Assembly (NCBI GenBank): GCA_000146465.1
Contig: CP001951.1
DNA length: 64,000 nt
Direction: 5' to 3' (one strand)
The notes beneath the pieces were generated by a model. It worked only from the letters and a program-made list of their open reading frames with translations. It did no database searches and had not been told where the DNA came from. The position numbers were made by a program, and so were the translations under genes. Positions 57,486 to 62,128 of the stretch are shown here, in pieces (the first letter of the stretch is position 1; each line of letters starts with the position of its first letter).

Positions 57486-58205
57486 ATGTGTTTAGGGCTT
57501 TCTGAACTGTGTCTGCAGAAAGAACAAAATGGCAACTACGATGCCCAGGGGATGAATGAGGAGAGTGGAAAGGAATGTTCGAAGCAGCAGAAGAGGCTGG
57601 CAGAGGCTCTCAGAAGAAGAGATGGCCTGAAGGAGGAGATGGAAAAAGTCAGACAGGATCTTCAAAAGCTGGAGATCCACCGGAGAGTACTATTGGACAT
57701 GGTAAGGATTGGAAATGGAGGAATGGAAATAGACGTTAACAGATACAGACCGATCTATAAAGCAGAAGTCGAGGGAGCAAAAGGCCTGATACATGTTCCG
57801 GGAGAGCGATACCATCTAGCAATATATAACCTCGGGAGGATTCCGATGGCGAGTATGAAGCCCTTTTATAACCAGAAGAACATCTATCCAATTGATTACA
57901 TGTGTAAGAGAGCCTACTACAAAAGTAGAGGGAGCCCTGGAGGAGACGGGTATGCCCTGTATACATGTACAATAAGGAATGTTTGTAGCAAGCCTCTGTT
58001 TGAGATATCTGAGAGGGACCTATGCATAAGAGGGAAGGCTGGGGAGGTCTTCAATGCATTTAAAAGTTTGTTTTCCTGGGAGATTGAGTTTGGAAGCATA
58101 ACGGAGTTTTTTGGGCTGAACAATCTGTATGTTCGGAGACTGATCAGCGAGCAAGAAGGATTTAGAGGGCTTGGAATTGGAGATAGATGGGAAAGGAAGG
58201 CCTGA
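57486..58205 (+). CDS. Hypothetical protein
   Basis: A 239-aa ORF with an N-terminal coiled-coil-like region (KQQKRLAEALRRRDGLKEEMEKVRQDLQKLE). No confident family. Confidence 0.4.
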   Translation: MCLGLSELCLQKEQNGNYDAQGMNEESGKECSKQQKRLAEALRRRDGLKEEMEKVRQDLQKLEIHRRVLLDMVRIGNGGMEIDVNRYRPIYKAEVEGAKGLIHVPGERYHLAIYNLGRIPMASMKPFYNQKNIYPIDYMCKRAYYKSRGSPGGDGYALYTCTIRNVCSKPLFEISERDLCIRGKAGEVFNAFKSLFSWEIEFGSITEFFGLNNLYVRRLISEQEGFRGLGIGDRWERKA

Positions 58206-58279: not shown

Positions 58280-60085
58280 ATGATTCTAGATGAGATTGTG
58301 AAGGAAGCGGCAGCGCTGCAGCTGAGGAAGGAAGACGAGAATACATGGTCTCGGGTGAACGATGTACTCATGAGGCTTTCCGGGGCAGTTGTGGGGCCGG
58401 AAGATGTGCGAAGAGTGTTAGAGAGTGTTTCCGACCTGATTGTAAGGTCGATGCAGAGTGACAGATCGAGGCTTGCAGGAACAGCCCTTGGATTTCTCAA
58501 GAACTGCATTTGCATCTTGGGAAATGAGTTTGGGATGGCAGGGCAATATCTAGTGCCTCTAGCGAAAGTATGTGGAAAGAGCAGTAAGGTGTTTTATTCA
58601 AGGGGAGAGGAAGTGCTTGTAGAACTTTGTAAGAGAGTGAATATTAAGGGACATGCAAGGTTTTTTAGCGAATACTGTGGAAGTGCCAATAAGAATGTTA
58701 GGCTTGCTATTTTCCGGGGGATTGAAGCATGGGGGAGTGAGTCTGGAAAGATAGAAGGATTGGAGAATCTTGTTATAAAGGGAAGAGAAGATGCATTTTC
58801 GGAAGTTCGAGAGGTGTGCAAAAGAATGATGGAGAAGTTCAGTATTGGGGAGAGAAAGGAAGGATGCTTTAGAAGACAGCGTTTGGAAGAGAGTCTTGAG
58901 AGTGGGGTAAAGAAAGGGCCTGTTAGAATGGCCAGGATGCCGGTGCGAGGGGGATATGGAGGAATGGAAGGAATCGGGGCAAGAGAGATGGAAAAGAAAG
59001 AGCTTGCACCCAAGTTTTCTCCGGCTAGAAAGCAAACAAAAACAGGAGATAAAGACTATGACAAGATAAGGGAGCTTTCAAGACAGGTCAAGGACATAGC
59101 CGAAGACATAAGGCCGAATGTGGGGGCTGAGAAGAGCTCAAGCGGTAGAATAAGAACCAAGATAAAAGAGATGTTCTCCAGAGGAAGTGATAAGGCAGGG
59201 ACTGTGTATCCAGAAAGTAAGGTTGAGATACCAAAGGAGGTGATGAACCATGAGGATCTAACTCCAGTGAGGTTGGACAAGTATCTCAGTAGATATCGTG
59301 AAGAGTATGGAAGGCTTATTCCCAAGAATATAACTGGAGTTAGCAATGGATTTGAAGTTGAGGATACCGAGCTAGGGGAAGAATTTCTAGAAGCCAAAGA
59401 AGTCTCTGATGAAGACAAGGCGAGGATTGGAGAAACAAAGGAAGAAGATAAGCTTAATGGGTCTTGCGAAGAGAAGAAGGAAAGGATTGTTGTTGGGAAT
59501 GAAAGCTTTGATGAGGAGATGGGACATGATTTAGAGGGAGGAGATGAAGTGTGTGCAGAGCTTGAGATCGGAGAACTTTCGAAGAGCTTAGCGAACATCT
59601 CGATCAATGAAGGAGATGTGGAGGATAAACCACATTCCGATGGAGATGGGATGTTGTCGGAGGCTTCTGGAAATCCCTACGAGAATCTTGTTGAAGGACA
59701 AGAGATGGAAAGCTCTCTTAAAGAGTACACCATAATGGATTCTGGGAAGCTAGAAGAACACAAGGAAAATAACAGGGATGAATCCCGGCTTTGTAGAGGA
59801 TCTGGGGCCTCGATCGGAGAGTCAACAATTTCGATTGACTCGGAGGTTGAGAACCAAAGAAAGGAGAGAAAGAAGGGATGTAGGAATGCTCTTGAGATGA
59901 TGAAGGGAAATCGATTTGCAGGGTTTCTTGAGTTGAGTGAAAGCAGCGAGGAAGAGACTGTATTTTCTAGAAGGCAGGGGGAAAGGAAGGAAGGAGTGGA
60001 GAAGCAAGATGCAGACAACACAGGCGACTTTACGGCGATGGACTCCCTTGTGGAGGTTAGAAGAGGGGTTTTTAGAAAGAAGTAA
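58280..60085 (+). CDS. Hypothetical protein with a HEAT/ARM-like N-terminal domain and an acidic Glu-rich C-terminal half
   Basis: A 601-aa ORF. The N-terminal 190 aa look like helical repeats, and the C-terminus is highly acidic and low-complexity. Confidence 0.4.
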   Translation: MILDEIVKEAAALQLRKEDENTWSRVNDVLMRLSGAVVGPEDVRRVLESVSDLIVRSMQSDRSRLAGTALGFLKNCICILGNEFGMAGQYLVPLAKVCGKSSKVFYSRGEEVLVELCKRVNIKGHARFFSEYCGSANKNVRLAIFRGIEAWGSESGKIEGLENLVIKGREDAFSEVREVCKRMMEKFSIGERKEGCFRRQRLEESLESGVKKGPVRMARMPVRGGYGGMEGIGAREMEKKELAPKFSPARKQTKTGDKDYDKIRELSRQVKDIAEDIRPNVGAEKSSSGRIRTKIKEMFSRGSDKAGTVYPESKVEIPKEVMNHEDLTPVRLDKYLSRYREEYGRLIPKNITGVSNGFEVEDTELGEEFLEAKEVSDEDKARIGETKEEDKLNGSCEEKKERIVVGNESFDEEMGHDLEGGDEVCAELEIGELSKSLANISINEGDVEDKPHSDGDGMLSEASGNPYENLVEGQEMESSLKEYTIMDSGKLEEHKENNRDESRLCRGSGASIGESTISIDSEVENQRKERKKGCRNALEMMKGNRFAGFLELSESSEEETVFSRRQGERKEGVEKQDADNTGDFTAMDSLVEVRRGVFRKK

Positions 60086-60204
60086 GAGCCTAAGGGCGAA
60101 GAAATAAAGTCTTTAAGTTAGCCAGGTTTTTGTGTTTTATGTGTGGGACGTAGAAAAAGAAGACATACTTTGAAGGTTTGTTTAAATTGTCCTGAGGAAG
60201 AACT

Positions 60205-60394
60205 AGTGGTTAGATGGCAAGTCGACCGCTCTGGGCAGTAAGCGCGGGTCTAGAGATCTCCTTGTGGGTAGTTGGGGAGTCTGTAGGGACTCTGCACCTA
60301 CCATTAAAGCGGAGGGGAACGCATGAGGGCGGAAACGCAGCAATGAGTACCTCCTGCAAGGCAGAGTCTCCAGCCTTCCGCGCCAGTCCTTTTT
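60205..60394 (+). ncRNA. Candidate signal recognition particle RNA (reduced, S-domain-like), probably a Pol III transcript
   Basis: It lies in a 375-bp GC-rich gap between genes that has no ORF. catGAGGGCGGAAACGCAGCAatgagtaCCTC (60321..~60355) closely parallels the SRP RNA helix 8 apex (human GAGGUCGGAAACGGAGCAGG: a GNRA tetraloop followed by AC-G.AGCA). Flanking complementarity gggactctg/cagagtctcc and gcggagggg/ccttccgc is consistent with a long helix-5-like stem. A T5 run at 60390..60394 serves as a terminator, and a TTTAAAT box sits about 25 nt upstream of the proposed 5' end. The ends are approximate. Confidence 0.4.
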
Positions 60395-60460
60395 GTGGAG
60401 TATGGCTTTTGCTTTTGAAGAAGGGATGGGGATATTGCTAAAAAAAACAAAGATCCCTAC

Positions 60461-61894
60461 ATGCTTGAGAACATAAGGATAGAGCCGAAGATGAGCTACA
60501 GGAAGATAGTGGGGGTCAATGGGCCTCTTGTGATAATGGACAACATCGGGTTTCTAAAGTATGCAGAGATAGTCAGTCTGACGCTTCCTGATGGAAGTGT
60601 TAGGCAGGGACAGGTTCTGGAGGTGTGTGGAAAGAAGGCTGTGGTCCAGGTGTTTGAGGGGACGTCTGGAATAGACATCAAGGAGACACAGGTTACATTT
60701 ACAGGAGAAACATTGAAGATGGGGATTTCGGAAGACGTGCTGGGAAGGATATTCAACGGGAGCGGAAAGGTCATTGACGGAGGCCCGAACATCATTGCCG
60801 AAGACTACTTCGACATCCAGGGACAGCCCTTGAATCCATACTCCAGGATATATCCCGAGGAGATGATCCAGACTGGAATATCATCGATTGATGTGATGAA
60901 CTCGATTGCCAGGGGACAGAAGATTCCTATATTCAGTGCATCGGGGCTTCCCCACAACGAAATAGCTGCACAGATATGCAGGCAGGCAGGGCTTGTGAAG
61001 AGAAAGGACTCGATAGATAGTAGTGACGACAACTTTGCAATAGTTTTTGCAGCAATGGGGGTGAATGTAGAGACTGCAAATTTCTTCCGGAACAGCTTCG
61101 AAGCATCTGGATCGATTGGGAGGACAGCATTGTTCCTGAATCTGGCCAACGACCCCACCATCGAAAGGATCATCACGCCACGACTGGCGTTGACGGCAGC
61201 AGAATATCTTGCATATGAGAAAGAGAAGCATGTTCTTGTGATCATGACAGACATGAGTTCGTATGCAGATGCGTTGCGTGAGGTTAGTGCTGCAAGGGAA
61301 GAGGTTCCAGGAAGAAGAGGATATCCAGGATACATGTATACAGACCTTAGCACGATATACGAGAGAGCAGGGAGGCTGGAGGGAAGAAACGGATCTATCA
61401 CCCAGATCCCGATTCTAACAATGCCAAATGACGACATAACGCATCCGATTCCAGATCTCACGGGATACATCACCGAAGGACAGATTTACGTTGACAGGCA
61501 GATGCACAACAGACAGATCTATCCACCCATAAATGTGCTTCCATCATTGTCTAGGCTGATGAAAAGCGCAATTGGGGAAGGGATGACGAGAAAGGACCAT
61601 GGAGATGTGTCGAACCAACTTTATGCAAAGTATGCAATAGGCAAGGATGCCCAGGCCATGAAAGCTGTTGTGGGTGAGGATTCTCTTTCTTTGGAGGACA
61701 AGATCTCGATAGAGTTTTTGGAAAGGTTTGAGAAGGAGTTTATAAGCCAGAGACATAACGAGCTTAGGACAGTGAACCAGTCCCTGGACATTGCATGGGA
61801 TCTCCTTCGAACGTTTCCACGAGAAATGCTTAATAGAATCCCATCGGACATATTGGATGAGTTCCATTCTGTGGCGCCCTCGAGATCGGAGTAG
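60461..61894 (+). CDS. VMA2: V-type proton ATPase subunit B
   Basis: [26 protein letters not shown], the degenerate P-loop region, [22 protein letters not shown] and the [34 protein letters not shown] signature of V-ATPase B. Confidence 0.9.
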
Positions 61895-61963: not shown

Positions 61964-62128
61964 ATGAACGGAATGGGCACAGACCAGAAAGTCTTTACAT
62001 ATGTATGCATACAGTGTCCCTCGCTGAGGGAGCTGAAACTGAAGGATCCCATCAGATGCACGGAATGCGGCAACAGGGTTCTCCGCAAGAAGAGGACAGA
62101 CAATGTGGTGCAGCTGGATGCCGTCTAG
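61964..62128 (+). CDS. RPB12: RNA polymerase I/II/III common subunit RPABC4 (Rpb12, ABC10-alpha), 54 aa; it falls below the ORF-track size cutoff
   Basis: ATG at 61964, stop TAG at 62126..62128. The product is MNGMGTDQKVFTYVCIQCPSLRELKLKDPIRCTECGNRVLRKKRTDNVVQLDAV. The C-x2-C...C-x2-C zinc ribbon and LKPKDPIRC.ECG.R...KKRT are the Rpb12 pattern. It is preceded by ggaaaaagg...aaaCCCCg. Confidence 0.65.
   Translation: MNGMGTDQKVFTYVCIQCPSLRELKLKDPIRCTECGNRVLRKKRTDNVVQLDAV

Follow-up and report, generated by a model that had tools for sequence, protein, structure and literature searches.

The analysed DNA, a stretch of 64,000 nt (64 kb) referred to below as the window, contains a 375-bp spacer between a gene for a 601-aa CLASP_N-like protein (58280–60085) and the gene for V-ATPase subunit B (60461–61894; assigned by Pfam). 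At the protein level, V-ATPase B shows 100% identity to its counterpart in Encephalitozoon intestinalis ATCC 50506, 95–96% identity to the proteins of E. romaleae, E. hellem and E. cuniculi, and about 91% to those of Ordospora. The window is therefore DNA of E. intestinalis, a microsporidian, in keeping with the reduced parasite that an earlier reading of the letters alone had assumed. Within the spacer, the element at 60205–60394 stands out by its base composition. Its GC content is 56.8%, compared with 37% and 39% in the two other parts of the spacer and 44.1% in the window, in agreement with this earlier, sequence-only reading, which had described the spacer as GC-rich. The start codon of V-ATPase B lies 66 nt downstream of the element on the same strand.

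For comparison, orthologous loci were fetched via the V-ATPase B orthologues of E. cuniculi (L001, L002), E. romaleae (L003), E. hellem (L004), Ordospora colligata (L005) and O. pajunii (L006), and from assemblies of sequencing runs that represent further microsporidian lineages (L007, SRR29713748; L008, SRR21023573; L011, SRR21633403). The sequencing-run lineages are close to Encephalitozoon/Ordospora. Their V-ATPase B is 88–94% identical to that of the window, and their loci have a GC content of 54–58%, above that of the named species.

The wider surroundings of the spacer also deserve a comment. Upstream lies an ORF with a FYRN domain (57486–58205, + strand), which encodes 239 aa from its first ATG, compared with 219–222 aa called in other Encephalitozoon; its true start codon may be located further downstream. 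Just downstream of V-ATPase B, a 54-aa ORF (61964–62128, + strand) encodes RPAB4/Rpb12 (PF03604, E = 7e-11). A 51-aa equivalent is called in L002 (4524–4679), L004–L006 and L011 and is uncalled in L001, which is of the same species as L002, and in L003, L007 and L008. This patchiness looks like an annotation inconsistency for a tiny gene.

Match to the SRP RNA family and gene signals

We scanned the whole window with Rfam 15 at gathering thresholds. The sole match, on the + strand, was to RF00017 (Metazoa_SRP), which aligned with 60240–60384 at 70.7 bits (E = 9.4e-16 for the 64-kb window). A match of this quality is far beyond chance. The gathering score of RF00017 is 70, and the element thus belongs to the SRP RNA clan CL00003, with RF00017 as its best model, by a margin of 0.7 bits. 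The alignment covers model positions 101–249 of 299, corresponding to the S domain and the adjoining part of helix 5, without the Alu half. It is this missing half that keeps the RF00017 scores near the threshold, or below it in some of the relatives described further on.

Permissive Rfam rescans of 60000–60520 and of the full window revealed nothing further that was credible. Matches to mir-2780 and EBV sisRNA at 60097–60190 (E = 1.3 and 7.6) fell far under the gathering scores and were dismissed as chance. An RNA from the minus strand was likewise rejected, as this strand folds more poorly (z = –1.45) and has no Rfam match. The unguided minimum-free-energy fold of the + strand reached –77.7 kcal/mol (z = –2.6) and matched the three-way shape of the S domain. 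Elsewhere in the 64-kb window, ARAGORN found no tRNA genes and no other Rfam family appeared at E ≤ 0.01, with libraries that are blind to the microsporidian snoRNAs of PMC5499648.

The gene and its putative signals are located as follows.

60181–60187, + strand: TTTAAAT, a TATA-like box at about 24 nt before the onset of conservation; likely a promoter element
60205–60394, + strand: SRP RNA gene of 190 nt, with its ends placed by the onset of conservation and the terminal T-run
60390–60394, + strand: T5 run, a putative Pol III-type terminator and the likely 3′ end

The sequence-only reading had proposed that the SRP RNA is strongly reduced, to about 190 nt, and possibly devoid of an Alu domain; the match to the S domain alone, on the predicted strand and above the gathering score, bears this out. 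It had also pointed to a TTTAAAT box about 25 nt upstream and to an end resembling a Pol III terminator. Both are in place, the box 24 nt before the start of conservation and the terminator-like TCCTTTTT at 60387–60394, where it forms the last letters of the element.

Both signals recur in the relatives. The TATA-like box is the sole upstream feature that stays aligned in nine lineages; it reads TTTAAAT in five of them, is of the TATAAT type in Ordospora and reads GAAAT/TAAGT in two of the sequencing-run lineages. At the other end, a run of 3–5 T follows the last helix-5 pair in all nine lineages (four or five T in the eight measured blocks, three in L011). A TATA-dependent Pol III gene is expected to have a TATA-like box about 25–30 nt upstream of its start and an oligo-T end; here, both signals occupy positions conserved in nine lineages. 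TATA-like boxes have been reported upstream of Encephalitozoon ncRNA genes (PMC5499648). A and B boxes were not found in these genes, and TATA/TFIIIB-driven recruitment of Pol III, with TFIIIB recruited directly, has been put forward as a hypothesis (PMC5499648).

Secondary structure and covariation

The RNAalifold consensus, calculated from a trimmed alignment, comprises 58 pairs, which are distributed over the following elements.

60207–60228, + strand: 5′ hairpin of 5 bp, a one-base bulge and 3 bp with the GNRA-like loop GGCAA, from the minimum-free-energy fold and RNAalifold
60233–60266, + strand: 5′ strand of helix 5, including the near-invariant CAGUAAG internal loop (60236–60242)
60267–60302, + strand: helix 6 with the GNAR tetraloop GUAG (60283–60286)
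60311–60354, + strand: helix 8 with the GNRA tetraloop GAAA (60332–60335) and the GAGG (60325–60328)/AGCA (60339–60342) loop; predicted SRP54-binding core
60355–60389, + strand: 3′ strand of helix 5, containing the cagagtctcc and ccttccgc segments

This fold is well preserved between species. In the alignment of eight sequences, 96.6% of the cells are paired, compared with 38–50% when the partners are slid, and 22 pairs show compensatory changes, compared with 3–6. The nine-sequence alignment yields similar values, with 96.0% of the cells paired (35–53% for slid partners) and 22 of the 58 pairs compensatory (1–7 for slid partners). In either alignment, none of 500 shuffles reached the observed value for pairing or for compensation. 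Changes that preserve the helices in this way point to selection on the fold.

On the level of the individual helices, the contributions differ. Helix 5 has 24 pairs in segments that are 82–100% paired, with compensatory changes in eight pairs. The 15 pairs of helix 6 are 94% paired and include 10 with compensatory changes; its loop is GUAG in eight lineages and GGAG in one. The 11 pairs of helix 8 are 100% paired and nearly invariant over nine lineages. Since helix 8 barely varies, covariation is little informative there, and this helix is supported by the covariance model instead.

The sequence-only reading had recognised the apex of helix 8, and the motif stands. The segment GAGGGCGGAAACGCAGCA at 60325–60342 (GAGG-GCG-GAAA-CGC-AGCA) agrees with all upper-case, highly conserved positions of the Rfam helix-8 apex consensus AGGgcgGAAAcgcAGCA, namely AGG, GAAA and AGCA. 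The tetraloop was correctly recognised as being of the GNRA type, but its register, given as GGAA, was one base off: in both the covariance model and RNAalifold, the loop is GAAA (60332–60335), closed by the pair G60331–C60336.

Further claims concerned the flanks, in which gggactctg (60286–60294) was matched with cagagtctcc, and gcggagggg (60309–60317) with ccttccgc, as a nested, helix-5-like stem. These pairings do not survive comparison. The segments are complementary in the E. intestinalis sequence itself, but the two pairings cross rather than nest. In the eight-sequence alignment, 67.9% pairing is no better than the mean of 67.7% obtained by shuffling, and a single pair is compensatory. 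The fold that the data support assigns gggactctg to helix 6 as its 3′ strand and gcggagggg to the 5′ base of helix 8, whereas cagagtctcc and ccttccgc both belong to the 3′ strand of helix 5.

The resulting structure has the hallmarks of an SRP RNA. Helix 8 carries a GNRA tetraloop and the conserved loop with 5′ AGG and 3′ AGCA, helix 6 bears a GNAR tetraloop of the eukaryote/archaeal type, known as the SRP19 site, and helix 5, which shows covariation, closes the three-way junction from which helices 6 and 8 extend. The Alu domain, with helices 2, 3 and 4, the loop-loop contact and the UGUNR motif, is absent, and a 22-nt hairpin is all that lies upstream. An Alu domain marks the canonical eukaryotic form and is no requirement for an SRP RNA in general.

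This 5′ hairpin lies outside the Rfam match, which starts at model position 101. Its eight pairs are 100% paired in nine lineages, and three of them show compensatory changes, among them a switch from GAU/GUC to GGC/GCC in L011. In three lineages, namely those of Ordospora and L011, the loop (60216–60220 and its orthologues) is a GNRA tetraloop (GAAA, GAGA and GCAA), and in the six others it is a G-N-N-R-A pentaloop. This alternation suggests that a GNRA-like fold is the conserved feature. Nothing is left of the Alu 5′ domain apart from this hairpin, which stands in the place of Alu helices 2–4. Judging from its substitution pattern, it is under purifying selection; the nine-lineage covariation set thereby adds evidence of selection on the hairpin to its support for the published secondary structure.

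Conservation at the V-ATPase B locus and alternative readings

Each of the eight related loci contains a match to the S domain of RF00017 (56–74 bits, E from 1e-11 to 4e-17), located just ahead of V-ATPase B on the same strand. Three of the eight orthologues reach the gathering score and five stay below it (56–69 bits). The conserved block is 190–193 nt long in the eight aligned orthologues; it starts at 60205 and stops at 60394, and the flanks diverge. The boundaries that had been proposed from the E. intestinalis sequence thus coincide with the limits of cross-species conservation. The helix-8 motif is kept in all eight orthologous spacers, with at most one substitution in its 22-nt core. 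The orthologous site had been named as a place to look for conservation, and both the motif and compensatory base changes are indeed found there.

In L007 (2776–2965) and L008 (2762–2952), the upstream neighbour is a gene for a DUF3591/bromodomain protein, and the SRP RNA still adjoins V-ATPase B. For Nosema granulosis (L009) and a further lineage (L010), neither Rfam at E ≤ 0.1 nor a search for the core with up to five mismatches detected an SRP RNA upstream of V-ATPase B. The linkage between SRP RNA and V-ATPase B is clade-limited. A metagenome scan for more distant relatives with the exact 33-nt pattern of the helix-8 core gave 0 matches.

A linkage that survives a change of the upstream neighbour, on the same strand and 66 nt from the V-ATPase B ATG, is what one could expect if the element were part of the V-ATPase B mRNA, as a structured 5′ leader or a cis-regulatory element, and not an independent RNA gene. 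However, the element has its own TATA-like box and a conserved T-run end ahead of V-ATPase B, the 66 nt up to the ATG are not conserved, and the sequence is that of an SRP RNA. Moreover, the linkage is missing in N. granulosis and L010, and RACE in E. cuniculi set the start and termination sites of the ncRNAs (PMC5499648). We give the leader interpretation next to no weight.

The same applies to a coding function of the spacer. The sequence-only reading had seen no credible ORF here. This judgement is sound as to credibility, but the spacer is not ORF-free: a 75-aa ORF beginning with ATG (60214–60441, + strand) runs over almost the whole element, and its ATG is conserved in 8/8 aligned sequences. 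The ATG is conserved because the GAUG that contains it forms part of the hairpin’s inner stem and loop. Six of the seven aligned relatives have a stop in the frame of the ORF inside the element: codon 2 in E. hellem, codon 10 in E. cuniculi and later codons in E. romaleae, L008 and the two Ordospora species. L007 keeps the frame open across the element and meets a stop just beyond. Indels of 1–3 nt shift the frame, and substitutions across the ORF track base-pairing, not codon structure. With the frame lost in relatives and no Pfam match to the ORF, we rejected the coding reading, and a small protein from this spacer is extremely improbable. An automatic caller could annotate the ORF as a hypothetical protein, and such an annotation would be an error.

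We also considered whether the element might be a pseudogene or retroelement copy derived from SRP RNA, comparable to Alu/B1 SINEs, or a chance GC-rich structure. Repeats derived from SRP RNA are common in other eukaryotes, and here the S-domain half alone matches RF00017, with a score barely over the threshold. However, known SRP-derived SINEs retain the Alu part, not the S domain. The window contains one match only, and this match occupies a fixed syntenic position in nine lineages of at least two genera. Its helix-8 core is unchanged save for one substitution, and the compensatory changes, by which every helix is maintained, show selection on the fold. Finally, its orthologue is the RACE-validated SRP RNA of E. 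cuniculi (PMC5499648). This origin is very unlikely, if slightly less so than the leader and coding readings.

Taken as a whole, the evidence is best explained by 60205–60394 (+ strand) being the single-copy SRP RNA gene of E. intestinalis, to which we assign a probability of about 97%.

Relation to known SRP RNAs and proposed function

The SRP RNA of Encephalitozoon, its reduced form and the loss of the Alu-binding proteins have already been published and are hence not new. The original prediction is credited to Rosenblad, Zwieb & Samuelsson 2004 (cited in PMC5499648), and SRP RNA is among the eight Encephalitozoon ncRNAs that were already in Rfam 12 (Belkorchia et al. 2017, PMC5499648). All 18 of 18 E. 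cuniculi ncRNAs, including SRP RNA, were validated by 5′/3′ RACE in the same study, and the transcript that the sequence-only reading had called for as a check is thus on record for the E. cuniculi orthologue (PMC5499648). The Encephalitozoon SRP RNA was described there as devoid of a canonical Alu domain, with a secondary structure containing an ‘uncommon Alu domain’ (PMC5499648), and the E. cuniculi RNA lacks helices H3 and H4 (PMC8137916). SRP9/14 and SRP68/72 are apparently absent in Encephalitozoon (PMC5499648), in line with the earlier expectation that components of the SRP9/14 type had been lost. As Rfam’s own threshold would annotate the E. intestinalis locus, the result carries little weight as a discovery. 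It does show that an SRP RNA can be recognised from the helix-8 motif alone and that the sequence-only reading placed its ends correctly.

The closest known counterpart is the E. cuniculi SRP RNA (L001, 2729–2921), a direct orthologue that is likewise flanked by the CLASP_N-like gene and V-ATPase B in the same syntenic position. The two RNAs, 193 nt in E. cuniculi and 190 nt in E. intestinalis, have the helices, the helix-8 core, the TATA-like box and the T-run in common. Only species-level substitutions, of which many are compensatory, set them apart in the 5′ hairpin, helix 5 and helix 6.

When comparing the E. intestinalis RNA with human 7SL and the canonical eukaryotic SRP RNA (RF00017, CL00003), the S domain is shared, with helix 5, helix 6 with its GNAR loop, and helix 8 with its GNRA loop and AGG/AGCA. 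Whereas the canonical RNA measures about 300 nt, that of E. intestinalis has about 190 nt and offers no counterpart to model positions 1–100 and 250–299, which hold Alu helices 2–4 and the distal part of helix 5. Yeast scR1 is about 520 nt long, with extra helices, and retains an SRP14-based Alu domain. Compared with scR1, the microsporidian SRP RNA is a minimal version. The loss of Alu helices H3 and H4 is reported to be common to it and ascomycete SRP RNA such as the scR1 of S. cerevisiae (PMC8137916). With bacterial 4.5S RNA, too, the SRP lacks an Alu domain and has helix 8 and SRP54/Ffh at its centre (PMC8137916). However, 4.5S RNA has neither helix 6 nor the three-way junction, whereas the E. 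intestinalis RNA retains helix 6, which would imply an SRP19-type assembly. A literature search for microsporidian SRP19/SRP54 inventories returned nothing specific.

Based on the gene layout, the locus would be a TATA-driven, Pol III-type unit. Transcription would probably start about 24 nt downstream of TTTAAAT and stop in the T5 run. The transcript of about 190 nt is predicted to fold into an S domain, in which helix 5 would close the three-way junction bearing helix 6 and helix 8. From established SRP biology, we would expect helix 8 to bind the M domain of SRP54 and SRP19 to clamp the tetraloops of helices 6 and 8. The particle would then bring ribosomes with signal peptides to the receptor at the ER. 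Because Alu helices 3 and 4 as well as SRP9/14 are missing, elongation arrest is presumably lost or much reduced.

A more speculative thought concerns what is left at the 5′ end. Together, the hairpin and the CAGUAAG loop at the base of helix 5 could form a protein-free ‘mini-Alu’ that has retained contact with the ribosome or bends back onto helix 5. We regard this as a doubtful proposal with a small chance of being correct, although, if true, it would mean that a eukaryote can arrest elongation by minimal means in the absence of SRP9/14.
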